Shown here: positions 6,059-63,660 of the stretch, piece by piece
Position numbering within the stretch: position 1 is the stretch's first letter
Layout: the number at the start of each line of letters is the position of its first letter
Assembly: GCA_027021335.1 (NCBI GenBank)
Contig: JALUUO010000111.1
Coordinates: 498 to 64,497, forward strand
Source: Nitrospirota bacterium
Lineage (GTDB): Bacteria; Nitrospirota; Thermodesulfovibrionia; SZUA-242
Direction of reading: 5' to 3'
Length of the DNA: 64,000 bases
The notes under the pieces: generated by a model
What the model saw: the letters and a program-made list of their open reading frames with translations, nothing else
Told to the model about the DNA's origin: nothing
The model's database searches: none
Translations under genes and position numbers: made by a program

Positions 6059-8431
6059 TTAATCAACCAAGCCACGAATAGGATTTTCGTACTTATCACC
6101 CTTCCATGTGACAGTAACCGTTAATGTGAACGGTTTAGGGGGATCAGTGTCATCAGGAGTCTTATCCGATACGAAGAAGAACATCTCTACAGGACCAGGT
6201 GTACTGGTGTCAAGAATTTTCACCTCAGTCATACCAAATAGATCCACATCACCGGTTGCCGCCACCTTGATCGTAGTTCCTGCAAGAAGTGGATTCAGGT
6301 GACGATCAGAAACCAGAACTTTAAATTGAAACGATTCTCCATCACAAATAGTAAAAGACCCTGGAGGACTCCAAGCATTAACTATACTTGGATTCGTACA
6401 GTCACCTATGTTTTGGCCTAACACGCTAAATCTATAATAGTATGGCTTTCCTGTATAAAGAAGGGGCATCATTCTAAACAGAGTTTTTGCCTCATCCCAT
6501 TGGCCATTTACATCGTCACATACTCCATTCCCATTTTTGTCTTGATAAAGTTCAACCGGATCATTTAGTCCTGTTGCATCATCACATGTTTCATTGTCAT
6601 TGTAATCTATAAATATCTCATCAGGAGTATCTGTAAAAGGTTCAGCCTCATCAGAGGTGCCGTCTTTATCGCAGTCTACATCAGCATCATCATACACACC
6701 GTTTCCATCACAGTCAACAAAAGCCTCTTCTCCATTTATGCTTACAGTAATTGAAAGCAGACCGTCACGCGGCTGACCCGCCACCGGTTCATCAGGCATT
6801 GGATCCAGCGGAATGCATGGCAGGTCTGTCGATTCAAGATCCGGCAGCGGATCCGGCAACGGATCCGGCGGAAGACATGGAACTTTTATACCATAATCCT
6901 CTGATACATTTTTAAACAAAAGGGTTTCCCACGTTTGAGGTACAACATCTTTCGGAAATTGACGTTGCGTTCTGAACGTTACGGTAGTTATCCCATTGCT
7001 GTCAAGAGTATTAGCGCTTGGAATTGCGCCGGCTTCAGTCATAAATGACACAGTGGTTCCTTCAAGTACATTCGAATTTCCGAAGCGATCTGCAACCCCC
7101 ACAGTGATCTCCGATGTTATGTCATAAAACAATTCAAAGCCCTCAACATTAAGAGGACGTGCTGCTACAGAGAAACTAGCGTAATTTGGAATCCCACCAC
7201 CTATTGAAAGTATCGATGTAACTGATGATATTCCTGTATCAACTACAGTGGCAAGCAACGTGACCGTCCCGGCTTGTATTCCGCTGTGCAGGTATACGGT
7301 TGCTTCACCATCCACCGTGGAAACAGTGGCATGAAAAGGGCTGTCGTACCGACCGTTATCGTTTGATTCGTCATATGCCTCGCCGGTATCATAGCATCCG
7401 TTTCCGTTTGCATCTGTCCATCCCTCTATTACGTTATCATCCTCGTTAATGTACTCACCTCCGTCGACCGGAAGTAGACCTGTGAGACCGGCATCTCCAG
7501 ATGGGTGTACCAGCAAGCAGACATCTATGGCTTCTCCGTCAAGTACCGGGTAACCATTAATATCTTTAATAGCAAACTTTATAGTAGAGAATTCACCTTG
7601 TCCGACACGCTTTATGCCAATAACCGAGGGGTCAGCCGAAGTAAAAAATATACTTCCAGTCTCGGCGCCATTCACTGCAATTTGAACAGTACTGCTACGT
7701 CCGCCAGCAGTGGCTGTAACAGTAACAACACCAGCCGTACTGGAACCAGCCGTAAATGTTGCTCTTGCGATGCCGTTGTCGTCAGTGTTAGCATTGGGAG
7801 TTATGGTTCCAAGGGCAGAATTATCCACAGAAAAGGTGACCTGGGTTCCTGAAGCTACGGGTCCGCCGTCAGTGTCCAAAACAGTAGCTGAAACGCTTGA
7901 CTGCCCGGTGGCTACTATCACTTCAGCAGGAGTTGCTGTAACTTCGACCGACCCTACCGCGCCTATTACTGCAATATTTACCGTACTGCTAACATCTCCT
8001 GCAGTTGCTGTTACAACAGCCGTGCCGGCATTGGTTGAGGAAGCGGTAAATGTTACTGTAGCCTGACCACCAGACGTGGAAGCTGTTGCAGTTATGGTTC
8101 CAGGAGTATCTGATAGACTTCCATATGTTGTCTCGCCCAAGGAAAAGGTGACTACCGTACCGTCCGGGACGCTGTTTCCGTCGGTATCCAATACTGTAGC
8201 AGTCACAATTGTTGTTCCACCTACCGATACCTGGGCAGAACCTGCCGTAACTGTAACCGTGCCGACTGTTACGGTCGTCCCGCCTCCATCACCATCACTA
8301 CCTCCTAAAGCACTCTCACCAGTTGGCGCAGAGGACGAATTGTTATTGCCGCAAGCAGAGATTGCAAGAATCATCAATAAAAACAGGATTTTTTTTAGTT
8401 TATTATTAATAAATTCGCAATTATTTTGCAT
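6059..8431 (-). CDS. Large surface lipoprotein with tandem Big_1 (invasin/intimin-type Ig-like) domains, an Asp-rich Ca-binding-like region and a PD/LP linker
   Basis: Lipobox LAISACGNN. Repeated A.V.D.DGN.V..G..V.F....G....TVT.T..AGG..S.V.IAV modules (4-5 copies). DxDGNGxxDD / DCDxDG Asp-rich motifs. DPLPDPLPD linker. C-terminal ~170 aa unassigned. The AAGGAG RBS fits the start at 8431. Confidence 0.6.
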   Translation of the reverse strand: MQNNCEFINNKLKKILFLLMILAISACGNNNSSSAPTGESALGGSDGDGGGTTVTVGTVTVTAGSAQVSVGGTTIVTATVLDTDGNSVPDGTVVTFSLGETTYGSLSDTPGTITATASTSGGQATVTFTASSTNAGTAVVTATAGDVSSTVNIAVIGAVGSVEVTATPAEVIVATGQSSVSATVLDTDGGPVASGTQVTFSVDNSALGTITPNANTDDNGIARATFTAGSSTAGVVTVTATAGGRSSTVQIAVNGAETGSIFFTSADPSVIGIKRVGQGEFSTIKFAIKDINGYPVLDGEAIDVCLLVHPSGDAGLTGLLPVDGGEYINEDDNVIEGWTDANGNGCYDTGEAYDESNDNGRYDSPFHATVSTVDGEATVYLHSGIQAGTVTLLATVVDTGISSVTSILSIGGGIPNYASFSVAARPLNVEGFELFYDITSEITVGVADRFGNSNVLEGTTVSFMTEAGAIPSANTLDSNGITTVTFRTQRQFPKDVVPQTWETLLFKNVSEDYGIKVPCLPPDPLPDPLPDLESTDLPCIPLDPMPDEPVAGQPRDGLLSITVSINGEEAFVDCDGNGVYDDADVDCDKDGTSDEAEPFTDTPDEIFIDYNDNETCDDATGLNDPVELYQDKNGNGVCDDVNGQWDEAKTLFRMMPLLYTGKPYYYRFSVLGQNIGDCTNPSIVNAWSPPGSFTICDGESFQFKVLVSDRHLNPLLAGTTIKVAATGDVDLFGMTEVKILDTSTPGPVEMFFFVSDKTPDDTDPPKPFTLTVTVTWKGDKYENPIRGLVD

Positions 8432-8487
8432 GACAATCTCCTTATTTTAAAAAAACTTTAGACGCGGTAACATAAAGATGGAATCTC

Positions 8488-8979
8488 TTATCCTCCACCA
8501 CCACCTGCTGTAGCAAGAGCTTTCACATCTATCTTGGCCAGTCCACCAGCCGTACCGGATGTCGCCTCCAGCTGAAACTTATATACCATACCAGCACCGC
8601 TTAGAAGCTGGAGTCTAACCGTATATGTTCCATCATCTCCTGTACATACCGTAGCAGGATTAGAAAGATTAGAGTTGCCGGTCGTCATCATCTGGGCCAC
8701 ACCCCACTCCTGACCGTTTGCACCCACTACCAATTCAACATCATTTAGGGGCATACCATCAGCATTGTGAACACTGATAGTAAAATCCTGGGTAGTGGTG
8801 GTAACAGAACTACTGCCGTCAGAAATCTTTAAGTCTTTAGGAAATATTGTTATCTTAGATCCATCCGGAGCAACATCTCCTCCACATCCGCTGCCGCATC
8901 CTACAAAAAACACAGGCAATAAACAGAGAATAAAAACAGACGAAACAGCAAGCAACCTTTTCCCGGTTAAAAACCTCAT
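8488..8979 (-). CDS. Small lipoprotein translationally coupled to pilQ (unknown function)
   Basis: The start overlaps the pilQ stop (ATGA, 8976-8979). Signal peptide with lipobox FFVGCGS. Gly-rich C-terminus. Confidence 0.5.
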   Translation of the reverse strand: MRFLTGKRLLAVSSVFILCLLPVFFVGCGSGCGGDVAPDGSKITIFPKDLKISDGSSSVTTTTQDFTISVHNADGMPLNDVELVVGANGQEWGVAQMMTTGNSNLSNPATVCTGDDGTYTVRLQLLSGAGMVYKFQLEATSGTAGGLAKIDVKALATAGGGGG

Positions 8980-11396
8980 TTCAAGCCCCTCTCTTTCACG
9001 ATTCGTGGCGTAATAAAAATCAGCAGCTCAGTAATCTCATCAATTTTACTGCTGGACTTAAACAGCCAGCCAAACCCTGGAATATCTCCAAGAATAGGGA
9101 TTTTAGTTTCACGCTCGGTAAAGTCCTTGGTGTATATCCCTCCTATCACTATTGTATCCCCATCCTTAACCAGCGCCTGCGAGGTCACCTCGTTCAAATC
9201 AATGCTGGGACCATCTGGCGTATTAACACCAACTGCGTTGCGGGTAACAAGCAGTTTCAGTTGAATATATCCGCCTGGCGTGATCTTAGGCGTAACCTTA
9301 AGACTCAAAGTGGCATCAACAAACTCTGTCTGTGTGCCCTCCTGGGAAACCGACTTATACGGAATTTGCGTACCCTGCTTAACCTCTGCCTCTTCATTGT
9401 CCATGGTCATTATTCTGGGATTCGAAAGCGTTCTGCCTCCATTTAATTCCTCTAAAGCAGCCAGCTGTACATCCAGGGTAAGAGCATCAGCTATACTTCC
9501 AAGGGATATGGACATATTCGGGTCTATGCCTCCAAATCCCACATTGGTTGCCAGAGATCCACCTATCCTGTTTGGAAACTGCACACCGGTAGGGTTGCCA
9601 TGAGCGGCATCCAAATTCAATGTTCCAGACCAGTCGATTCCCAGATCCTTTGCAGTGCTGGTTCTTATGGTGACCATCCGGGCTTCTATCAGAACCTGCT
9701 GCTTGGGAATGTCTATTATTTTGACAAGGTCCATCAGCTTATCTATGCTTTCCTGGACATCCTGAATGATTATCATATTCATTCTTTTATCCACACTTAT
9801 ACGCCCTCTTGTTGTCATTATCTTACCCTGCCTAAGTGACGTATAAACATCCTGTGCATTTGCATAGTTTAATGCAATTGCACGCTGATATAGTTCTCCG
9901 GCTCTGAGCTTAGAGTCCCTGCTTTTGGCAACAGTATCCTGTTCACTGGCAAAAATTTCCGGTGGAGCAACCCTAAGAATGTTACCCTCGATCACCTTCT
10001 TCTGTCCGGACAACTTAAGAACAATGTCCAAAGCTTGATCCCAGGGAACATTCTTAAGATTCAAACTAGGAATTCGTCCTTTGACTTCAGGGTGAATAGC
10101 AAGGTTGTATCCCCCAACGTCAGCCAATAACCTGAGTATTTGAACCACATCGGCATCCTGAAAGTCTAGAGATATTCTCTTACCGGCATGAGTCATAGCC
10201 TTATCTGCCAGTGGCACAGCTTCTACCTGAGCGATATCTTTAGTTAGATCCTTTGGCTCTTCCACTACTGCCACTTCCGAACCTGCTTCAACCGTGGTGG
10301 CATCAAAAACTGCAGCAGGCGGAACTATAGAAACAATAATACCTGCCGGTCCTGTGCTAACATCATACTCGGTTGTTTCATAAAGGTCGATCACTACTCT
10401 TGTTTTATCCCTGTAAGCTCCAGCCCGTATTGCCTTTATAGGTGAAACTACAGACTCAACAGCACCGGTTACCGCCGGAGATGCCCCAGGAACATCCACA
10501 ATAATACGTCTTCTACCAACAGCGTAAACATCAGGCTCTACTTCTTTATCAGTAGCAATTTCCACATTAACCCGACCGTCAAAACTCCCAACCGTGATAC
10601 CTGTGATAGTAGAGACGGCCGGAGCACCGGCATTTTCAATCTCGGCTGAAGCGGCCACTTTTTCCTCTTTAACCACAGCTCCAACCTCGGCTGAAGATTG
10701 AGCATTTTCTTCGGCCGCGGCAAGATCGGCTTGTTCGGCCTGCCCGCCGTGAACACCTTGGTCGGACGAGAGACCATCGGCAGGCGAAGTCTGATCCGCC
10801 TCTTCCGTATGTTTCGGTTTTGCTGCTACAGCGACAATACCGGACAAGGCCTGAGCTTCAGTTTCAGGCGCTGGAGATTCTTCTTCTATCGCCGATACAC
10901 TTTCTATCGCTGGTACGCTCTCTGCTTCTGCTACAGGTGGAGAAGCAGGTACTGCCGCCGCAAGAGACTGAGACTTTGGTATTTCCAGTAATAGATGATT
11001 TCCCTCGATTCTGGGCGCAATATCGATAGGAGCCGTCAAGCCAATCTCAAAACGGGCCATAGGCGATGGAGTTTTAATCTGTTTAGGAACTATTTCAAAA
11101 ATGGAATCCTTGTCAACCAGGATTCTCTGCGTATGTTCACCTAAGTTGGCTGCCGTAAGTTCCACAACAACACGAAAAGGATCAGACGGCTTGTACATTG
11201 TAAAAACAAGCGGCATGTCTGCTTCTATGTCAATAATTTGTCTGTCGCTTTTGTCGATTACCTTAACGCTTTTGATCGAAGGACCTTGGGATACAACAGG
11301 AGTTTTTTCCACCTGAGCGCCTGCCGAGCCATAACCGGCAAAAGCAAAAATAAGAAAAAAAAGCAGAAAGAAAGACCGGGATCTATTCTTCATCAT
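8976..11396 (-). CDS. pilQ: Type IV pilus secretin PilQ
   Basis: N-terminal AMIN-like domains separated by an Ala/Glu/Pro-rich linker, a secretin N domain, and a C-terminal secretin domain (…ELLIFITPRIV). The gene follows pilMNOP. Confidence 0.9.
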   Translation of the reverse strand: MMKNRSRSFFLLFFLIFAFAGYGSAGAQVEKTPVVSQGPSIKSVKVIDKSDRQIIDIEADMPLVFTMYKPSDPFRVVVELTAANLGEHTQRILVDKDSIFEIVPKQIKTPSPMARFEIGLTAPIDIAPRIEGNHLLLEIPKSQSLAAAVPASPPVAEAESVPAIESVSAIEEESPAPETEAQALSGIVAVAAKPKHTEEADQTSPADGLSSDQGVHGGQAEQADLAAAEENAQSSAEVGAVVKEEKVAASAEIENAGAPAVSTITGITVGSFDGRVNVEIATDKEVEPDVYAVGRRRIIVDVPGASPAVTGAVESVVSPIKAIRAGAYRDKTRVVIDLYETTEYDVSTGPAGIIVSIVPPAAVFDATTVEAGSEVAVVEEPKDLTKDIAQVEAVPLADKAMTHAGKRISLDFQDADVVQILRLLADVGGYNLAIHPEVKGRIPSLNLKNVPWDQALDIVLKLSGQKKVIEGNILRVAPPEIFASEQDTVAKSRDSKLRAGELYQRAIALNYANAQDVYTSLRQGKIMTTRGRISVDKRMNMIIIQDVQESIDKLMDLVKIIDIPKQQVLIEARMVTIRTSTAKDLGIDWSGTLNLDAAHGNPTGVQFPNRIGGSLATNVGFGGIDPNMSISLGSIADALTLDVQLAALEELNGGRTLSNPRIMTMDNEEAEVKQGTQIPYKSVSQEGTQTEFVDATLSLKVTPKITPGGYIQLKLLVTRNAVGVNTPDGPSIDLNEVTSQALVKDGDTIVIGGIYTKDFTERETKIPILGDIPGFGWLFKSSSKIDEITELLIFITPRIVKERGLK

Positions 11397-44232: not shown

Positions 44233-47200
44233 ATGAAAGCAACTATAAATAAGACGGTTCTCAAAAGTATCTGCTTACTGATTATTGTCTGCCTGAGTGC
44301 CTTTATGCTTGCTACTGATGCCACGGCAATGGGCGGCGGCGGTGGCGGCGGCGGTGGCGGCGGCATGACCAGTCCTGCCGTCATTAATCCTTCCGGCGGC
44401 GCCCTTCCAGGCGGAGAGACAGGCACACTCTACAGCACTACGATAACTGCAAGCGGATGTGACGCAAACTACCGCTGGACCTTGACAAGCGGCAACCTGC
44501 CGCAGGGCTTATCGTTTTCCGATTTTTTCAGTCAGACCATTACGATTTCCGGAATGCCTGAACTGGTTGAAACCGCGGGATTCACCCTAGAGGTGGTGGG
44601 CGACGGATGCACCAGCACCGCAGCAACATTCACACTTAACGTAGTGCAGGGCAACAATCCGGTTATCACTACCCAAGGCCTTTTATACGGGCTTGTGGGC
44701 ACTGCCTATAGCGATACTATAACAGGAAGCTTAGGCACCACCGACTACGGCTGGAGCGTGGTTGCAGGCAGCCTGCCGGCCGGCTTGGCCCTGGATTACG
44801 ATGACGCTGTTCCGCGCGTTGCAACCACTCCGTCTGTAAATTTATCCGGAACCCCGACAGTCGCCGGACTTTACACTTTTACCGTGATGGTCACAGACAG
44901 CCTGGGCAAAACCGGTTCTAAGGATTTTACAATAGATATTCAAAACGATATTCAGATCATAACATCCTCCCCTCTTCCGGATGGAATGGAAGGAGTGCCA
45001 TACTCTCTTACTTTGCAAGGAATCGGAGGCAACAGTTCATTTTATCTATGGAATATCGTCGATTTGGGCAGCGATCCCTCTCTTCTTCCAGGCTTGGGCA
45101 TAAACGAGACAACCGGTGAACTATCGGGAATACCGACCCAGGAAGGAGACTATATTTTTACCGTTGTGCTTGAGGACACTTCTAACGGTTTTGCAGTAAC
45201 AAGGGATTTTACCCTTAAAGTCTACCCTAACGATCTCGCTTTTGATACTACCGTAATTCCGCCCGATGGTGTAGCCTGTACGACTTACACTGCAAATTTA
45301 GCAGGAACAGGTGGCACCCAGCCTTATAACTGGAGCCTGACAGCCGGCCTGCTGCCTCCGGGCCTGACACTGGCTGCCAACGGAACTCCATCCACAGTTA
45401 TATCAGGAACGCCTAGAGAGGCCGGTCTATTTGCTTTTACCGTATCCCTTACAGACAATGCCGGTGTTAACAGGCAAAGAACCTTTTCGATCTCAATAAC
45501 CGGTGATCCAAGCCCGTGCAGTGTTAATCTTGATTACAATACGGCATATCCACCGTTCATCTCGACGGCTGTAACCCCTAATGTTCTTCTTATACTGGAT
45601 AACTCCGGAAGTATGTATGAATTTGCCTATAAGGACCCTGGAACATCAAATGACAGGTCAACCCGGGATGTCAGTTACACGGCAGGCGTGCCCTATTACG
45701 GTTATTTCGAGTGCGACAAGGACGGTTTGATCACGTATACCTACAATGCCGCAGAAGGCTATTTCGAGCAGACTAACGTGGCCCTTCCGGCTGCTGACAG
45801 CTTTAACGGCTGTTTTCTCAACTGGCTTACAATGAGAAGAGTGGATATTGCAAGAAAAGTTCTAACAGGAGGTAAATACGACAGCGCCAATGGTTTACTG
45901 GTCGCTGCGGAAAGACCGAACAGAAACAGGTGGAAGGGCTACGACACCCAGACTTACAGGGTATATTATGATACAACAATAAGCAATTATGAACTGATAC
46001 GTGTCTGTACTGACGGAAGCAGCGGCAATTGCGATACCGGAGACGGCACATTTTATAACGTCAGGGTTAAAGTCAACAGCGAACCAAAAGGCATAATACA
46101 GGAAACTTACTCCCTTGTAAGGTGGGGCCTTATGTTTTTTAATACCTATGAGGGTGGATATCTAGATGTACCTTTGGATGGAGGGCCGCCGACAGAGCCT
46201 CCTCTTCCTCCAATCGATCCTGACCACTTAAACACCCTTGTTGAAGCTATACGAACCACGAACCCGACCACATGGACACCACTGGCCGAAACGCTTTACG
46301 AAGCCACAAGATATTACCAGCGTGAGGTCTCTGCCTATAACGGCGGCGTGGATTATTCCACATACCCTGATCCCATGCAGTTCGACTGCCAGAAGAACTT
46401 TGTGCTTCTGCTTACGGACGGTGAATCAAGCAAGGACGAAAATCTTCCTAACTCATGCCTGGGCGGCTCAGTCACCGACACAAATTTCGATATTCAGGAA
46501 TACATGACCAGAATCGCGGATAACGAGGGACCCTCACTTGATAACGGACTGGGCATAGGCATAACCTGGGGTGACCAGGCTTGTCAAAACGCCAACAGCA
46601 TTGACGGCACGTTTTATCTCGAAGGCGTGGCATACTATGCCAACACAAACGATATGAGACCCGATCTAGCCGGTGATCAGTTCGTTAAAACCTATACCGT
46701 TTTTGCATTCGACGAATCCCCTATCGGAGCCGGAATTCTGCAAACAGCCGCCAAGTATGGAGCTTTCAAGGATTCAAACGATAACTTACCTTATCCTATC
46801 CCTGATGTAGCAGATGAGTGGGATAAGGATGCCGATGGAATCGCGGACAGATTTTTTAAGGCTTCCGAAGGTGGATCTCTTGCCGGTAAAATCAAAATGG
46901 CCCTATTTGATATTCTTCAGAAGAAGTCCTCAGGAACATCAGCTGCCGTGCTTGCAACCACATCAAAGGGAGAAAGTGCTGCATACCAGGCCTATTTTCA
47001 ACCAACCATAATGACTGCCGAAGGAACTGCTGACTGGATAGGCGGCGTGTATGGATTGTTTCTTGATAAATACGGCAATACGCGTGAGGATGACCGTGGC
47101 GACGCGAGACTTTGCTATGATGTTAATAGTCCGCCTGGCTGCACCGCACCTAACAAAATAATTCAGATGTACTACGACAATGTTGATAATAAAACTTATG

Positions 47201-49410
47201 CCAAACGGTATCCAGGCACTGTGGTGCGTAACGGTATGGGTAACGGCATGCCTACTAGTCTTCCTGACGGAACACCTACCGGTATCCCCGAGGAAAAGAT
47301 ACCGATTGATGACGTAAAAAACCTATGGAACGGCGGCAACACGCTTTGGGCAAAAAATGCCGACACAAGAAAGATATTTACGACACTGAACGGTTACGAG
47401 TTTGTCTCAGCAGAGCTGCCCAATATCGACCCTGCTACAGGCAGCACATTTTATGATGGAAATGCAGCCGAGCTGCAAGTTAAACTCGGCGCCGGAGATG
47501 CAGCCGGATCCGCCGACATAATAAACTATATAAGAGGGGTTGATATACCGGGAAACAGGCCCCGGACAATCGGAATTGACATAACCGGCGACGGCGACTT
47601 TGACGATCCAGGAGAAATTAATGTCTGGAAGCTTGGAGACATCGTGTATTCGACTCCTGTTGTTGTGACCAGGCCTAGGGAAAACTATGATTTTCTGTAT
47701 AAGGATGCCTCTTACTTCTTCTATCTGAACAAATATTTCAGTAGAAGACATGTGGTTTATGCAGGCGCAAATGACGGAATGCTTCATGCTTTTAACGCCG
47801 GCTTCTACGATGCAAGAAATCTCAGGTACTGCAAGGGAGGCGACACTGACGCCGACAGGATAATCAGTGACACGGAATGCGCAGGCTCTGGCGAGCCTGG
47901 TCTTGGCGAAGAGCTATGGGGTTTTGTGCCGCGCGGAGTTCTGCCGACCCTTAAGCTGCTTATGAACGTAGACTACACTCATGTCTACTATGTGGACTTG
48001 AAGCCTAAAACAACCGATGTGAAAATTTTCGACTGCAACAATCCACCGGACGTTCATGTAGGAGATACTTCTGATTCAGTCTGCTGGGGAACCATCCTGA
48101 TCGGCGGATTAAGATACGGCGGAAAGGCTAATCCCGAGTACTTTGCCTTGGATATAACCGATCCGCAAAATCCCAGACTGCTCTGGACGTTTTCCGATCC
48201 TGGTATGGGCTTCAGTATGTCGCGTCCGGCAATAGCCAAGACATGTGACAACGGCGGCACTTGCAAGTGGTTTGCGATATTTGGGTCCGGAGCGACAGAC
48301 TACACACCGGACTCTGATCTTACCGGATTTTCGGCTGCAAACGGCCAAATCTATGTGCTGGATCTCTCATCAGGGGTAAATGGGGTTATAAGCAACTGGA
48401 CCGAAAACACTAATTTCTGGAAAAAAGATACTGGAAAACCGGCAACATTTATGTCCGACCCTATAACTGTTGACGGGTGGCTTGATTATGCTGTCGATGT
48501 AACCTACATCGCGGAGAATTACCAAACAGGAGGTGCATGGAGCACAAGGATCCTGAAGCTCACAACAAACCGGGGAACCCTTATCGATCCATCACTCTGG
48601 ACGCTTTCATCGCTTGCTGATGTAGCTTCCATCGATACCGGCAACCTGGATAAGATCAGAAGGATAACATCAGCGCCATCCATCTCTATGGATGAACAAG
48701 AAAATATGTGGGTCTTTTTCGGAACAGGACAGTTCCTGGGCTTACAAGATAAAAACCGTACAGACACAGGAGCCTTTTATGCTGTAAAAGATAAGAGAAA
48801 CTGCTGGGACAACAACAGCTGTCCCGAGGTGACTAACCTGTATAATGTATCCAGCGACGTTATATGCCCCGAAAAAGAGCCGGGAAGCTGTACGGCCACA
48901 ACAAGCCTGGGAAATCTGGAGCTTGATATTGAGCAAAATTACGATGGGTGGGTAATGTACTTTGAGAACCTTCTTGAAACAGTGGACTTTACAGGTGCGA
49001 CCCTTCTTCATACCGGAGAAAGAGTGCTGTCTAAGCCGCTGGTTCTTGGAGGCATTGTGACATGGACGACGTTTATACCTGGTGACGAAAAGTGTAACCC
49101 TGAAGGCGAAAGTAACATATATTCGGTCTACTATAAAACAGGTTCGTCATATAAAGATTACGTTTTCAATGCACAGGCATATAAAACCAAACAAAATAAC
49201 ACACCCGAGGCTGTTGCCAGGGTAAAAAGACTCGGCCCTGGAATGGCTTCATCTCCCAGTGTGCAGGTAACAGCAAAAGGCGCTGCAAATATAACAATAA
49301 CCGATCCAAACGGACAGCTTCTGCAGTTAAGAACTACACCGGCTTTTAGAGTTGGCGACACTCCTGTTACCTCGATAAACAAAGAAATTTATGACCCGGA
49401 TTGCAACTGA
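44233..49410 (+). CDS. pilY1: PilY1-like type IV pilus tip adhesin, 1725 aa, with N-terminal He_PIG/cadherin-like repeats, a vWA-like domain and a C-terminal PilY1 beta-propeller
   Basis: Signal peptide then a Gly11 tract; 4-5 'putative Ig' repeats (…Y..T..A.GG.....W.L..G.LP.GL.L…GT…G.Y.FTV…D); a vWA MIDAS (LLILDNSGSM); the PilY1 signature VYAGANDGMLHAFNAG and a Ca-binding-like loop DITGDGDFDDPGE. Its position after pilVWX is consistent. Confidence 0.8.
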   Translation: MKATINKTVLKSICLLIIVCLSAFMLATDATAMGGGGGGGGGGGMTSPAVINPSGGALPGGETGTLYSTTITASGCDANYRWTLTSGNLPQGLSFSDFFSQTITISGMPELVETAGFTLEVVGDGCTSTAATFTLNVVQGNNPVITTQGLLYGLVGTAYSDTITGSLGTTDYGWSVVAGSLPAGLALDYDDAVPRVATTPSVNLSGTPTVAGLYTFTVMVTDSLGKTGSKDFTIDIQNDIQIITSSPLPDGMEGVPYSLTLQGIGGNSSFYLWNIVDLGSDPSLLPGLGINETTGELSGIPTQEGDYIFTVVLEDTSNGFAVTRDFTLKVYPNDLAFDTTVIPPDGVACTTYTANLAGTGGTQPYNWSLTAGLLPPGLTLAANGTPSTVISGTPREAGLFAFTVSLTDNAGVNRQRTFSISITGDPSPCSVNLDYNTAYPPFISTAVTPNVLLILDNSGSMYEFAYKDPGTSNDRSTRDVSYTAGVPYYGYFECDKDGLITYTYNAAEGYFEQTNVALPAADSFNGCFLNWLTMRRVDIARKVLTGGKYDSANGLLVAAERPNRNRWKGYDTQTYRVYYDTTISNYELIRVCTDGSSGNCDTGDGTFYNVRVKVNSEPKGIIQETYSLVRWGLMFFNTYEGGYLDVPLDGGPPTEPPLPPIDPDHLNTLVEAIRTTNPTTWTPLAETLYEATRYYQREVSAYNGGVDYSTYPDPMQFDCQKNFVLLLTDGESSKDENLPNSCLGGSVTDTNFDIQEYMTRIADNEGPSLDNGLGIGITWGDQACQNANSIDGTFYLEGVAYYANTNDMRPDLAGDQFVKTYTVFAFDESPIGAGILQTAAKYGAFKDSNDNLPYPIPDVADEWDKDADGIADRFFKASEGGSLAGKIKMALFDILQKKSSGTSAAVLATTSKGESAAYQAYFQPTIMTAEGTADWIGGVYGLFLDKYGNTREDDRGDARLCYDVNSPPGCTAPNKIIQMYYDNVDNKTYAKRYPGTVVRNGMGNGMPTSLPDGTPTGIPEEKIPIDDVKNLWNGGNTLWAKNADTRKIFTTLNGYEFVSAELPNIDPATGSTFYDGNAAELQVKLGAGDAAGSADIINYIRGVDIPGNRPRTIGIDITGDGDFDDPGEINVWKLGDIVYSTPVVVTRPRENYDFLYKDASYFFYLNKYFSRRHVVYAGANDGMLHAFNAGFYDARNLRYCKGGDTDADRIISDTECAGSGEPGLGEELWGFVPRGVLPTLKLLMNVDYTHVYYVDLKPKTTDVKIFDCNNPPDVHVGDTSDSVCWGTILIGGLRYGGKANPEYFALDITDPQNPRLLWTFSDPGMGFSMSRPAIAKTCDNGGTCKWFAIFGSGATDYTPDSDLTGFSAANGQIYVLDLSSGVNGVISNWTENTNFWKKDTGKPATFMSDPITVDGWLDYAVDVTYIAENYQTGGAWSTRILKLTTNRGTLIDPSLWTLSSLADVASIDTGNLDKIRRITSAPSISMDEQENMWVFFGTGQFLGLQDKNRTDTGAFYAVKDKRNCWDNNSCPEVTNLYNVSSDVICPEKEPGSCTATTSLGNLELDIEQNYDGWVMYFENLLETVDFTGATLLHTGERVLSKPLVLGGIVTWTTFIPGDEKCNPEGESNIYSVYYKTGSSYKDYVFNAQAYKTKQNNTPEAVARVKRLGPGMASSPSVQVTAKGAANITITDPNGQLLQLRTTPAFRVGDTPVTSINKEIYDPDCN

Positions 49411-50398
49411 TAATTCTGTGATGACAAAGACGAAAACCGTTTACCTTCCAGTTTTGCGTATCCAGAGAGCCGCACTTGCTGCGGCCTTCTGGATGCTTGT
49501 TTTGGCACTTGCGGTTGGATGCAACAGCAATATCGATGAAGTTCCTGTCGAGACCGGCAAGAACCAACCAGGCAGTTATACTGCAACGGATGACATTTCT
49601 CAGGCAGGCGGAAATTCATCTTCTTTGTTCGATGTGAGCATCGGGCCTCCAAATGCCACAAAAGCGAGTATTATCCAATTGGATGCCGATCGATCAAAGC
49701 TTTACGGCGGAAATGTGAACTGGTATGTTAATGGCCTGCTGGTAGAGCATAACGGAGGAACTCGTTTATCGTACAAAGACATTTCCAGGGGCGATGTGAT
49801 AAAAGCGGTTATTGTCAAAGACGATGGAGAGGAAATATCGTCGAACGAGTTAGTTATTAAAAACTCTCCGCCGACTATTCAACAGGCCGAGGTGCAGCCG
49901 AAGTTCCCGATGGTCGGCAACACTCCAAAGGTTAAGGTTTGGGGCAGTGATATTGACGGGGATAAGGTTACTTTTGAATACCAGTGGTATGTAAACGGAA
50001 AACCTGACGGCAGGTGGAGTGTTCTTGAGGCGGAGTTCAAAAAGAGCGATAAAATCAAGGTTAAAATAACCCCTCATGACGGACTGGAGTATGGAAAAAG
50101 TGTAACCCTCACACCGATTATTACAAACGCCCCGCCTGTTATAAATACACACCGGGGAAGATACGACGGAAGTGTATATAGAAGTCAGCTTATGGCTGAT
50201 GACCCAGACAATGATACTCTGTTTTTCGAGCTGATTGAGGCGCCAGAAGGCATGAAAATAGATTCAGGCTCCGGCCTGATAACCTGGCGGGTTATATTAG
50301 AGGCGGAAAAAACTTATCCAATTAAAGCGCGCGTCTCTGACGGAAACGGCGGCAGCAGTGTTTACGCTTTTAAGCTGACAACACACCTGGAAAAATAA
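49391..50398 (+). CDS. Lipoprotein with internal WYVNG repeats and a C-terminal cadherin-like/He_PIG domain, immediately after pilY1
   Basis: Lipobox LALAVGCNSN. Duplicated module (NVNWYVNGLLVEHNGG.../FEYQWYVNGKPDGRW...). C-terminal PPVINT...DPDNDTLFFELIEAPEGMKIDSGSGLITWR. Overlaps the pilY1 end by 20 nt; start at 49391 or 49421. Confidence 0.5.
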   Translation: MTRIATDNSVMTKTKTVYLPVLRIQRAALAAAFWMLVLALAVGCNSNIDEVPVETGKNQPGSYTATDDISQAGGNSSSLFDVSIGPPNATKASIIQLDADRSKLYGGNVNWYVNGLLVEHNGGTRLSYKDISRGDVIKAVIVKDDGEEISSNELVIKNSPPTIQQAEVQPKFPMVGNTPKVKVWGSDIDGDKVTFEYQWYVNGKPDGRWSVLEAEFKKSDKIKVKITPHDGLEYGKSVTLTPIITNAPPVINTHRGRYDGSVYRSQLMADDPDNDTLFFELIEAPEGMKIDSGSGLITWRVILEAEKTYPIKARVSDGNGGSSVYAFKLTTHLEK

Positions 50399-61243: not shown

Positions 61244-63514
61244 TTACTGCGTAGTAAATGTCCTTATCCGGCTCTCTGTGCTTCCTCCGTTACCGTCTTT
61301 TGCCACCACTTTCCATTTATAGGTAGTATTTGGCTGAAATCCTGTTCCCGTATATGTTTCATAGCCTTCGTCATACCCGCCGTTGCCTGTATCTTCTCCA
61401 CCACCGCATGAGATAAACAGCATACTGCTTGTTATGGCCGCGACTGCAAAAATCATTAACATCTTTCTTCTTCCATCTCCAAGAAGAGCTGCTGCCAGCA
61501 TAAATAGGCCAAAGCCGCCGCCTGCATAGTAGTAGAAGCCTTTACTTTCCAGGTAAACTACTGATTCAATTTTACAGTCTGTAAAATCACGATCTTCCTC
61601 ACATGCCAAGAACTCATAAGTAACTTTGTCTCCGTCTAAATCCGTGGAAGGCGCCCATTTGAAAGTTATTGTTTCTCCAAGCCCTGTCTGTCCATCTGAA
61701 GGATAAACAAGTTCCGGAGCGGTCGGAGGATTTCCTGGCGAAGCCGTGATTCCGTCGCAGTTGTTATCAACACCGCCATCGCCATATATTTCTGTTGCGC
61801 CGGGATTAATATCCGGATCTTTATCATTACAATCGCCGCCGCATGTGGTGTAGCCATCGCCGTCAGCATCAAATCCCTCATCAACAGTACCGTCACAGTC
61901 GTTGTCTATATCGTCACACTCTTCTGTCGCACCAGGGTAGATACCTGCGTCAGTATCATCACAGTCGCCGCCACATAGCGGAAACCCGTCGTTGTCAGCA
62001 TCAGAGTCGTCATCATTACTGCTGTTACAGTCGTTATCAATAGCGTCACCACATATTTCACGGACCCCCGGATTGATGTCCGGGTCATTGTCGTTACAAT
62101 CGCCGTCACATGTTGTGTAGCCATCACCATCAACATCAAAACCCTCATCAACAATGCCGTCACAGTTGTTGTCTCGGCCGTCGCATTCTTCTGTTGCGCC
62201 GGGATTAATGTTTGGATCGCTGTCATTGCAATCGCCGCCGCATGTTGTATAGGTATCGCCGTCATCATCCAGGTTCTCATCAACATCACCATCGCAATCG
62301 TTGTCTATAGTGTCACATATTTCTATTGCACCGGGATAAACGTCTGCGTTATTGTCATCACAGTCCACAGGCCCGCAATCTCCACCCTCGATAGCATATC
62401 CGTCACAATCCACATCCGTACATGCCGCATCAATGGTTAAAAGGCGCTGATCAAGTCCGGGTTGTGTGGCATTTGGGCTAAAACCTTTTAAGCTCGTAAG
62501 TGTTGAACGAAGATTCGTTGCAGCGCCCGACCAGATATAGGTTCCCTTTGGAAGGTGCATTTTCAGATTGTATTTATTTACTACCGTGTCGGCAGGAGTA
62601 TCAATATCAATACTTTCACATTCTCCGTAAGTTCCGGTCAAAAAGCTGTATGCACCTACACATACTTCTGTTATGTCGGCATAACCCGTAATCGGGCCGT
62701 CAAAACCGGCAGAAGGCTCCATAATTGTAATTGTAAAATTCACACATGTACTATTTAGCTCGGTAGCTCCATCTATGTCCGGCGTACGAGTAAATATCTG
62801 CGGAGGTTTTTCACCCGCCGCTATAGCCTCTGTGCGCCAGATAGGCAGTCCAAGGTAGTTGCCGTCTTTATCATCTCCTGTGTTGGGAGTGCTGTTCCAC
62901 TCTTGCATACCGCCCAGGTCATTGTCCGGAATGCCGTCACTGTCAATATTAAAAAGGTTGTTAAATGATTCCGTAGTCTTGGTTCTGGCATTGTAAAACG
63001 TCTGTAAATCCATCCATGCCGCCATATAGTAACTCCTGTAACCGGTACGGGATATCAAGTAAATCTCAGTATCAAAGTTGATTACACCGGTAGCAAGAAG
63101 TTCCTCGATAATCTCTTTTACCTCTGCGGGATTTTCCGGCTTTACGTTGCTGTTTTGTGCGTTGCCGGTAATCCACCAGGGCAGAATAATAGGCAGCTTT
63201 TTGGGATCAGGCCGATTATTGACAGATTTGCCTATCATCTTAAGTGTCGGGGTTCCACTGAATGCTCTGTCCGGATCAGGAACGTCCGGATCAGGACAGC
63301 CTGGGTTATCAGCCCATGGCGGATTGCATCCGTAATACTCATCAACCGTACGTGTATCAAACATTACTGCTGTAGAGTCAGTCGCTGTCAGTGCGGCGTA
63401 AGCGTCACCGGCAGAAATACTCGTAAAAGCAGCGTACGAAAAGCGTGGCATAAATAAAAGCAACCCGGCAAATATTAGAAACATTGTAATTGTAACCGTC
63501 TTTTTGATCTTCAT
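61244..63514 (-). CDS. Secreted protein with tandem MopE-type Cys-rich 'putative metal-binding' repeats, an FN3-like C-terminal region and atypical C-terminal hydrophobic segments
   Basis: Signal peptide. At least five repeats of DxDGDGYTTCGGDCNDxDPxINPGAxExCDGxDNDCDGxVDEG. P.LVYPSDG...TFKW...DGDKVTYEF and ...TTYKWKVVAKDGNGG.S...TFTT FN3-like strands. GGAGG RBS. Confidence 0.7.
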   Translation of the reverse strand: MKIKKTVTITMFLIFAGLLLFMPRFSYAAFTSISAGDAYAALTATDSTAVMFDTRTVDEYYGCNPPWADNPGCPDPDVPDPDRAFSGTPTLKMIGKSVNNRPDPKKLPIILPWWITGNAQNSNVKPENPAEVKEIIEELLATGVINFDTEIYLISRTGYRSYYMAAWMDLQTFYNARTKTTESFNNLFNIDSDGIPDNDLGGMQEWNSTPNTGDDKDGNYLGLPIWRTEAIAAGEKPPQIFTRTPDIDGATELNSTCVNFTITIMEPSAGFDGPITGYADITEVCVGAYSFLTGTYGECESIDIDTPADTVVNKYNLKMHLPKGTYIWSGAATNLRSTLTSLKGFSPNATQPGLDQRLLTIDAACTDVDCDGYAIEGGDCGPVDCDDNNADVYPGAIEICDTIDNDCDGDVDENLDDDGDTYTTCGGDCNDSDPNINPGATEECDGRDNNCDGIVDEGFDVDGDGYTTCDGDCNDNDPDINPGVREICGDAIDNDCNSSNDDDSDADNDGFPLCGGDCDDTDAGIYPGATEECDDIDNDCDGTVDEGFDADGDGYTTCGGDCNDKDPDINPGATEIYGDGGVDNNCDGITASPGNPPTAPELVYPSDGQTGLGETITFKWAPSTDLDGDKVTYEFLACEEDRDFTDCKIESVVYLESKGFYYYAGGGFGLFMLAAALLGDGRRKMLMIFAVAAITSSMLFISCGGGEDTGNGGYDEGYETYTGTGFQPNTTYKWKVVAKDGNGGSTESRIRTFTTQ

Positions 63515-63571: not shown

Positions 63572-63587
63572 ATTCGTTAAAAGCAAC
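63572..63587 (-). promoter_or_regulatory. Sigma-54 (RpoN) promoter, minus strand: TGGCAC-agacg-TTGCT, ~46 nt upstream of the MopE-repeat gene start codon
   Basis: The reverse complement of 63572-63587 is TGGCACAGACGTTGCT, a near-perfect match to the -24/-12 consensus TGGCAC-N5-TTGCW. Confidence 0.55.
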
Positions 63588-63660
63588 GTCTGTGCCAGGC
63601 TTTTAACTTATTGATTTATCAAGTTTTTTAAAATTAACATATTCTAAAAACAGTAAAAAT

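Follow-up and report, generated by a model that had tools for sequence, protein, structure and literature searches.

C-terminal sorting signals decide which proteins stay on the bacterial surface, and in all characterised ones, to our knowledge, a motif, a single helix and a basic tail make up the extreme C-terminus. The tripartite design of motif, helix and basic cluster is common to the LPXTG, PEP-CTERM, GlyGly-CTERM and MYXO-CTERM signals (PMC11980579). In the MYXO-CTERM/myxosortase system (Guo, Haft and Wall 2025) an invariant Cys is proposed to be lipidated by an Lgt-like enzyme, resulting in a lipid-anchored C-terminal end; this Cys is in a short motif immediately ahead of the only helix, a defined lipobox is lacking, and the helix is removed by a CPBP protease (PMC11980579). 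The module described here forms the last 168 residues of a 756-aa MopE-repeat protein from a Nitrospirota bacterium (assembly GCA_027021335.1, contig JALUUO010000111.1, positions 498 to 64,497; this whole stretch of 64,000 nucleotides is referred to as the window). It adds a second helix, which amounts to a complete lipoprotein signal peptide, and the whole hairpin appears to be placed inside a folded domain. Judged by its sequence, it is a divergent member of the recently curated anchoring domain NF058595.

The tail reads PTAPELVYPSDGQTGLGETITFKWAPSTDLDGDKVTYEFLACEEDRDFTDCKIESVVYLES-KGFYYY-[AGGGFGLFMLAAALLG]-DGRRK-[MLMIFAVAAITSSMLFIS]-C-GGGEDTGNGGYDEG-YETYTGTGFQPNTTYKWKVVAKDGNGGSTESRIRTFTTQ* (coordinates checked by translation). 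The first strands, which resemble those of a fibronectin type III (FN3) domain, run to ...KIESVVYLES before the connector KGFYYY, and the hydropathy of the tail shows two hydrophobic peaks, at residues 664-679 and 685-702. The initial annotation described an odd C-terminus in which an FN3-like domain is interrupted by an anchor-like and a lipoprotein-signal-like segment, and this is confirmed by translation and by conservation. There is no stop codon between RRK and M685, and M685-Q756 comprises 72 amino acids, as stated there. The pattern of hairpin and lipobox occurs only once in the six-frame translation of the window.

The module shares with the tripartite signals a short motif (YYAG/GGG), a hydrophobic helix and a basic cluster, as well as secreted passengers of diverse kinds and upstream choice-of-anchor domains (PMC11980579). 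GlyGly-CTERM/rhombosortase signals have a Gly-Gly motif, a helix and a basic cluster as the last ~25 residues; in the module AGGG, a helix and RRK are present, but 72 residues follow the basic cluster. The PEP motif of the PEP-CTERM/exosortase system and the LPXTG motif of the LPXTG/sortase system are absent from the module, and the GlyGly-CTERM, PEP-CTERM and MYXO-CTERM models of NCBIfam gave no match to the tail even at E<=10. The earlier label of a GlyGly-CTERM/PEP-CTERM-like anchor is apt for the shape of helix 1 plus RRK, but the segment is not C-terminal and matches no sorting-signal model except NF058595. With the MYXO-CTERM tag the module has in common an invariant Cys in a C-terminal tag and a proposed lipid anchoring at the C-terminal end. 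Unlike in MYXO-CTERM, the Cys follows the second helix in canonical lipobox orientation, the motif region ahead of helix 1 contains no Cys, and a folded domain rather than the peptide chain would form the link to the passenger. The features shared with a classical Sec/signal peptidase II lipoprotein signal are a basic n-region (RRK), an h-region of 18 residues, and F-I-S-C followed by Gly and a Gly/Ser-rich tether. The difference is that the signal of the module is found at residues 682-703 of 756, after another membrane helix, and that the passenger ahead of it is large and exported, with an N-terminal signal peptide of its own.

An exhaustive HMMER search with the 168-residue tail against 1.84 billion representatives of 50%-identity clusters gave 1920 matches at E<=0.001. 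In at least 102 of the best 150 representatives the match covers the entire tail without a break and lies at the very C-terminus, with both hydrophobic segments and the Cys present. The remaining matches are proteins with many uninterrupted copies of the FN3-like domain, and these copies match the first or the second half of the query. A word-indexed homologue search gave no matches with the 168-aa tail, and with a profile of 51 sequences 4 of the 15 matches listed were true members. Alignments were made of 99 tails, used for the column counts, of a set of 51 tails and of 60 full-length proteins. The closest homologue (P0008, 749 aa) is 68% identical overall and has the same continuous frame; in the tail the identity is 71% with MAFFT and 74% in the HMMER search. 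The continuous architecture is shared by the aligned homologues, and no homologue was seen that ends after the basic cluster. This is the result that the initial annotation had set as decisive against a nested gene and a lost stop.

The lipobox Cys is invariant in every hairpin-bearing tail seen. Position -1 is Ser in 84 and Ala in 13 of the 99 tails, position -2 is Val, Ile, Ala or Thr, and position -3 is Leu in 53 and Phe in 21. The residue after the Cys is Gly in 81-83 tails, Ser in 11 and Asp in 3. The classical lipobox pattern of PROSITE, {DERK}(6)-[LIVMFWSTAG](2)-[LIVMFYSTAGCQ]-[AGS]-C, fits 94 of the 99 tails and also the tail in the window. The last basic residue and the Cys are 17 residues apart in 57 tails and 16-19 apart in 90; in the window protein there are 18 hydrophobic residues. 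The net charge of the loop is +3 or +4 in 80 tails, and summed over the tails acidic residues outnumber basic ones by 227 to 43 in the 20 positions after the Cys. Family-wide, Gly makes up 55% and Ser 17% of the eight residues that directly follow the Cys. The linker is variable in length, with 23-68 residues from the Cys to W146 (the conserved Trp of strand F), and the fragment from the Cys to the end of the protein has 46-92 residues with a median of 54. From Cys703 onwards the window protein reads CGGGEDTGNGGYDEGYETYTGTGFQPNTTYK. In its acidic, Gly/Ser-rich composition and variable length the linker appears similar to the tether of a mature lipoprotein. The proposal that the second segment is a lipoprotein signal, made in the initial annotation, is strongly supported at the sequence level by the invariant Cys and the fit to the lipobox pattern.

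The two flanks of the hairpin are predicted to form one seven-strand FN3 sandwich, with the helical hairpin in the C'-E loop. An AlphaFold2 model of the window tail with 50 homologues (mean predicted local distance difference test score, pLDDT, 81) has strands at 601-604, 609-612, 616-621, 632-639 and 648-652 in the first half (pLDDT 89-98) and at 719-723, 731-739, 745-747 and 751-755 in the second half (pLDDT 94-98). Between the halves are a low-confidence coil, helices at 668-677 and 681-700, and then a disordered Gly-rich stretch. Foldseek against the PDB found fibronectin type III domains with a TM-score of 0.65-0.72 normalised on single-domain chains, for example 3n1g_D and 3d1m_D, and Pfam fn3 matches residues 719-752 below its threshold (17.8 vs 25 bits). 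The first half includes the conserved W620 and the Cys pair C638/C647.

Uninterrupted bacterial copies of the FN3-like domain (e.g. P0006, P0160) show that the two halves normally belong together. They have the same predicted fold and the same signature as the two sides of the insertion, P..L..P..G...V.F.W..S.D.DGD.V.Y ... TTYYWKV.A.D..GG...S....F.T, but their C and F strands are only about 25-30 residues apart and a hydrophobic segment is lacking. In the module the spacing from VTYEF to TTYKWKV is 94 residues, and the insertion proper is therefore about 60 residues (K658-G717). That the domain contains a real insertion, one of the possibilities raised at the outset, is supported by the shared continuous architecture together with the modelled hairpin. 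In Bacteroidota the uninterrupted copies are arranged in tandem or immediately follow an N-terminal lipoprotein signal (P0160, P0162). Sequences P0155-P0162 from Flavobacteriaceae (e.g. Seonamhaeicola and Siansivirga; loci L019-L037) are ordinary lipoproteins of about 230 aa, in which an N-terminal signal and a Cys are followed by a linker rich in Gly and Asp and then by two FN3-like domains of this type, both uninterrupted. The unit of lipobox, Gly linker and FN3 therefore exists alone, and the second half of the module may have evolved from such a unit of small lipoproteins. The positions of all elements are given in the table.

Table. Elements of the module and of the gene that carries it (positions in the window, all on the minus strand)
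Feature	Position	Strand	Residues	Remarks and basis
Whole gene, 756-aa secreted MopE-repeat protein with C-terminal module	61244..63514	-		Stop codon 61244-61246; open reading frame (ORF) list and translation
FN3-like first half, strands A, A', B, C, C'	61544..61726	-	597-657	AlphaFold2 and conserved columns
Connector KGFYYY into helix 1	61526..61543	-		Family motif [IV]-Y-Y-A-G; Y 60/F 20 and A 89 of 99 tails
Helix 1, AGGGFGLFMLAAALLG, Gly-rich transmembrane segment, predicted outside to inside	61478..61525	-	664-679	Hydropathy; AlphaFold2 helix 668-677
Basic loop DGRRK, predicted cytoplasmic	61463..61477	-	680-684	R/K conserved at three consecutive columns
Helix 2, MLMIFAVAAITSSMLFIS, equivalent of lipoprotein h-region, predicted inside to outside	61409..61462	-	685-702	Hydropathy; AlphaFold2 helix 681-700
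Lipobox F-I-S-C	61406..61417	-		Cys703 (61406-61408) predicted diacylglyceryl acceptor; predicted LspA cut just before Cys703
Gly-rich acidic flexible linker, GGGEDTGNGGYDEG	61364..61405	-	704-717	Low pLDDT
FN3-like second half, strands E, F, G, ends the protein	61247..61363	-	718-756	AlphaFold2, Foldseek, sub-threshold Pfam fn3
Passenger, five Cys/Asp-rich MopE-type putative metal-binding repeats	61757..62401	-		Pfam PF11617 (Cu-binding_MopE), 162 bits, 5 stretches
N-terminal passenger region, about 340 residues	62390-63430	-	29-375	
N-terminal Sec-type signal peptide, MKIKKTVTITMFLIFAGLLLFMPRFSYA	63431..63514	-		Sequence reading; probable cleavage after SYA
Sigma-54-type promoter element TGGCAC-N5-TTGC	63583..63597	-		About 70 nt 5' of the start codon; expression signal, not part of the module

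The only match in NCBIfam is NF058595.1, named 'invert_tail' and described as 'lipo-invert putative C-terminal anchoring domain' (release 20.0, June 2026), with E=3.9e-5. Residues 665-739 (helix 1, basic loop, helix 2, Cys, linker and strand F) align to positions 33-98 of the 113 in the profile. The name and the extreme C-terminal location fit the anatomy of the window module, and the function is labelled 'putative'. The profile is matched at E<=0.01 by 50 of the 51 homologous tails (best 1e-10) and at E<=1e-5 by 20 of the 60 full-length carriers. From the ratio of E-values we infer a score of about 42 bits for the best homologous tail, which is above the curated cutoff. Literature searches for a description of the module found no paper, and a term search of the 2023 Haft preprint on Cys-containing sorting signals found no mention of it. 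The structural logic of a lipoprotein signal hairpin that splits an FN3 domain is apparently undescribed.

The carriers of the module are diverse. The 60 full-length proteins contain 68 Pfam families, including HYDIN/VesB-like Ig domains (21), S8 peptidases (5), beta-propellers, FG-GAP, PKD and MopE repeats; P0037 is an example from this survey. A hydrophobic N-terminus was found by a crude hydropathy test in 61 of the 79 carriers that start with Met and exceed 230 aa. NCBIfam identified choice-of-anchor D in 21 and choice-of-anchor Q in 4 of the 60 carriers (25 together), and one gammaproteobacterial member has choice-of-anchor U directly before the module. The choice-of-anchor families are named for preceding different kinds of C-terminal anchor in different organisms. 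Because these domains precede the tail in the carriers, the module occupies the slot of a sorting signal. It behaves as a portable C-terminal tail, and in 24 ORFs from the loci described below 0-5 residues separate it from the end of the ORF.

A search for related loci with an alignment of five sequences, in one genome per species (GTDB), found the whole module in 22 loci of named genomes. Ten are from metagenome-assembled genomes (MAGs) of Nitrospirota, including Thermodesulfovibrio; the others are from Geobacteraceae, Desulfuromonadaceae, Geopsychrobacter(aceae), two Gammaproteobacteria, Ectothiorhodospiraceae, Myxococcota, Spirochaetales and one unclassified bacterium. The source of the window is an uncultured Nitrospirota bacterium, and the AspRS encoded there has 62-67% identity to proteins of named Nitrospirae/Thermodesulfovibrionia MAGs. 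Many locus matches with 23-30% identity (Flavobacteriaceae, Bacteroidales, Thermotogota) were rejected as ordinary tandem FN3 lipoproteins. A divergent subfamily in Desulfuromonadales (L061, L069, L073 and P0163) differs in its FN3 subtype, lacks the YYAG motif and carries a longer linker behind the Cys. The hairpin and lipobox are found at the equivalent place in this subfamily, so the insertion point is conserved beyond the close family. Locus L008 (2250-8489; Nitrospirota MAG MFD02199.bin.2.126) has three tandem paralogues of the module, and some genomes therefore hold several module proteins side by side; each of the three is frameshifted, in a way that looks like long-read assembly errors. 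A stand-alone copy of the module, P0152 (205 aa; L003 9947-10615), is found near a group II intron-type reverse transcriptase and a DDE transposase.

The conserved elements, the topology-compatible sequence features and the single predicted FN3 fold together suggest how the protein may be lipidated, cut and located. The reading towards which we lean is that of a conserved 'lipo-invert'-type C-terminal membrane-anchoring module, in which a two-helix hairpin in the FN3-like C'-E loop would lead to lipidation by Lgt, a probable cut by LspA and a split-FN3 clasp. The N-terminal signal peptide would direct the passenger, that is the MopE repeats and the first FN3 half, through Sec. Helix 1 (664-679) would act as a stop-transfer segment with DGRRK remaining in the cytoplasm, and helix 2 (685-702) would re-insert from the inside to the outside like the h-region of a lipoprotein signal. 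Lgt would diacylglycerylate Cys703 in the lipobox FIS-C703 and LspA would probably cut before it; in a diderm, Lnt could acylate the new N-terminus. The lipidated fragment of about 54 residues (Cys, Gly-rich tether and strands E-F-G) would join strands A-C' of the passenger in a complete sandwich. In this way the C-terminal domain would hold the passenger to the lipid anchor, the reverse of an ordinary lipoprotein. According to the positive-inside rule, basic loops lie in the cytoplasm. This rule, together with the charges of the loop and the linker, places the loop in the cytoplasm and both FN3 halves outside, with the lipobox oriented for Lgt and LspA.

Several points weigh against this reading. 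Lipidation and cleavage are deduced from sequence throughout the family. Lgt and LspA act on N-terminal signal peptides, and their action on an internal signal preceded by another helix is assumed. A passenger cut by LspA would keep helix 1, the loop and helix 2, and the lipid would add nothing unless this hairpin were taken off as well. A search for an enzyme that could remove it, near the module genes in 23 loci and among the multi-helix ORFs of the window, identified none. These window ORFs include no exosortase, rhomboid, CPBP, Lgt or LspA, only MscS, an LPG-synthase-like protein and CopA; about 74 kb of genome was inspected for such enzymes. The hairpin helices have a pLDDT of only 53-76. 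Against NF058595 the 168-aa tail scores 23.9 bits and the whole protein 19.6 bits, below the curated cutoff of 37 bits, and all of the 10 tails tested from named genomes are below it as well (17.7-29 bits or no match). Curators have recognised the kind, yet the window protein and most of its relatives would be left unnamed by the model. A few short carriers, such as P0152, have no evident N-terminal signal peptide; P0152 may be a remnant, or its N-tail may be translocated without a signal peptide.

Either the hairpin stays on the cut passenger, the lipid being an additional anchor, or it is removed by another protease, which would allow transfer to the outer membrane. In E. coli an Asp after the lipidated Cys causes retention in the inner membrane, and by this rule the Gly or Ser found after the Cys fits removal of the hairpin and transfer to the outer membrane. 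A bolder version of the 'lipo-invert' reading, which we hold only tentatively and regard as doubtful, is an uncharacterised route. In this route the usual Lgt/LspA machinery would act on the internal signal and cut the chain within the FN3 domain, and strand complementation would keep the large passenger on the small lipidated fragment, as an 'inverted lipoprotein' held together non-covalently. If an intramembrane protease then removed helix 1, the product could move to the outer membrane or surface. It would be the main C-terminal anchoring system of Nitrospirota and relatives, in place of PEP-CTERM, GlyGly-CTERM or type IX secretion system tails.

The module could instead be a permanent helical-hairpin anchor in the inner membrane with the chain uncut, the FN3 domain sitting on the membrane and Cys703 lipidated without cleavage or conserved for another reason. 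Two hydrophobic helices and a basic loop would suffice for stability, and the conserved small residues (the Gly positions of helix 1, including G86 in 86 of the 99 tails, and the G/A/S columns 108-109 of helix 2) fit tight helix-helix packing. The failure to find a partner protease near the genes in the 23 loci and the window agrees with this as well. A single C-terminal helix would, however, anchor equally well. An uncut chain could use one terminal helix and would have no need to return to the outside, so the architecture argues for cleavage. The return of the chain to complete the FN3 domain, the invariant lipobox Cys and the variable Gly-rich tether are hard to explain without lipoprotein processing, and LspA cleaves diacylglycerylated lipobox substrates, which also counts against a permanently uncut hairpin. 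We consider a permanent anchor unlikely.

A cleavable helix 1 would mean that it forms, with the YYAG/Gly-rich start and RRK, a tripartite signal for a rhomboid/rhombosortase, an exosortase or a CPBP-type enzyme, in addition to the lipoprotein processing. Once freed from the inner membrane, the passenger would travel via Lol or type II secretion to the outer membrane or surface, with the lipidated FN3 fragment as its only attachment. The order of motif, helix and basic cluster is that of the tripartite design (PMC11980579), and choice-of-anchor domains are found upstream of the module. Gly or Ser after the Cys in 92 of the 99 tails, with Asp in 3, predicts no inner-membrane retention by the E. 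coli rule. At two Desulfuromonadales loci the neighbouring regulator passes TIGR02915, 'PEP-CTERM-box response regulator': L061 4026-5606 (Desulfuromonadaceae) with 638 and L069 8686-10125 (Geopsychrobacteraceae) with 635 vs 502.6 bits, which hints at co-regulation with surface systems of the exosortase type. Set against this are the lack of a PEP motif, the lack of a match to the GlyGly-CTERM, PEP-CTERM and MYXO-CTERM models, and the lack of a rhomboid, exosortase or CPBP among the multi-helix window ORFs or the recurrent neighbours in the 23 loci. Such a signal is distinctly improbable.

The initial annotation also allowed for an internal start at M685 giving a nested, separate lipoprotein of 72 aa. 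The in-frame ATG does follow a purine-rich stretch with GGAG, and the product would open with a textbook lipoprotein signal peptide. The GGAG is, however, 14 nt 5' of the ATG, and the stretch resembling a ribosome-binding site, GGAGATGGAAGAAGAAAG, consists of the codons for G-D-G-R-R-K; the true start ATG of the 756-aa ORF has GGAGG 9 nt 5' of it. M685 is not conserved: its column contains I, L, M, T or A (I 40, L 17 and M 8 of the 99 tails), and the closest homologue has Val. A scan for promoters and terminators around the gene gave no sign of a separate unit of transcription or translation inside it. The nested lipoprotein would amount to three orphan beta strands, which could not fold alone, and the upstream half-domain would be left incomplete in more than 100 families. 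A nested gene is therefore highly improbable.

A present-day artefact or recent accident, in which a lost stop, a frameshift or a chimeric assembly fused an anchor-ending gene to a small lipoprotein gene, is hardly credible and is refuted by the conservation data, for although the RRK|M junction resembles the end of one gene and the start of another, the exact 756-aa protein is recorded by the independent sources NCBI, JGI, Logan and ENA (3 contigs, the largest 152 kb), the 749-aa homologue has the same continuous frame, the architecture is cross-phylum and, contrary to the suggestion that a stop codon was lost, all homologues continue beyond the basic cluster. An ancient fusion may still be the evolutionary origin of the module, and ordinary lipoproteins with N-terminal FN3-like copies exist.

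If the processing is as proposed in the 'lipo-invert' reading, C-terminal lipid anchoring would be achieved via the universal Lgt/LspA pathway alone, with a split domain as clasp. The substrate range of Lgt and LspA would extend to internal signals, and the module could serve as a portable tag for surface display. It would also account for the display of proteases, adhesin-like Ig arrays and metal-binding proteins by many uncultured Nitrospirota and Desulfuromonadales. For annotation, genes with the module should not be split or marked as fusions, and the cutoff of NF058595 misses many members including the window protein.

Clustering of the neighbours in the 23 loci gave no conserved partner gene coding for a protease or an acyltransferase; the only recurrent neighbours were pairs of a histidine kinase and a sigma-54 regulator. 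A histidine kinase and sigma-54 response-regulator pair adjoins the module gene in five of the 23 loci (L005, L009, L015, L061 and L069), and L046 has kinases only. The sigma-54 element of the window gene agrees with the consensus at 10 of 11 positions, against a background of 0.065 sites per kb at >=9. At the threshold used, such an element was found upstream of the window gene only and is not a general trait of module genes. A sigma-54-dependent response regulator (L001 1038-2435) is encoded on the same contig about 7.5 kb further upstream of the element.

The N-terminal part of the passenger (residues ~29-375) has no Pfam family and its 347 residues gave no sequence match in the PDB, and an earlier impression of a rhodanese-like region is therefore unsupported. 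Elsewhere in the window, a region related to type IV pili or secretion (6059-11396) codes for an invasin/Big_1-like protein (6059-8431) and a secretin with an AMIN domain (8976-11396). In a second region of this kind (44233-50398), the gene of a PilY1-propeller protein of 1725 aa with He_PIG Ig domains (44233-49410) is followed by that of a smaller Ig-domain protein. The secretin and the PilY1-like protein mark the host as a diderm that has surface appendages.

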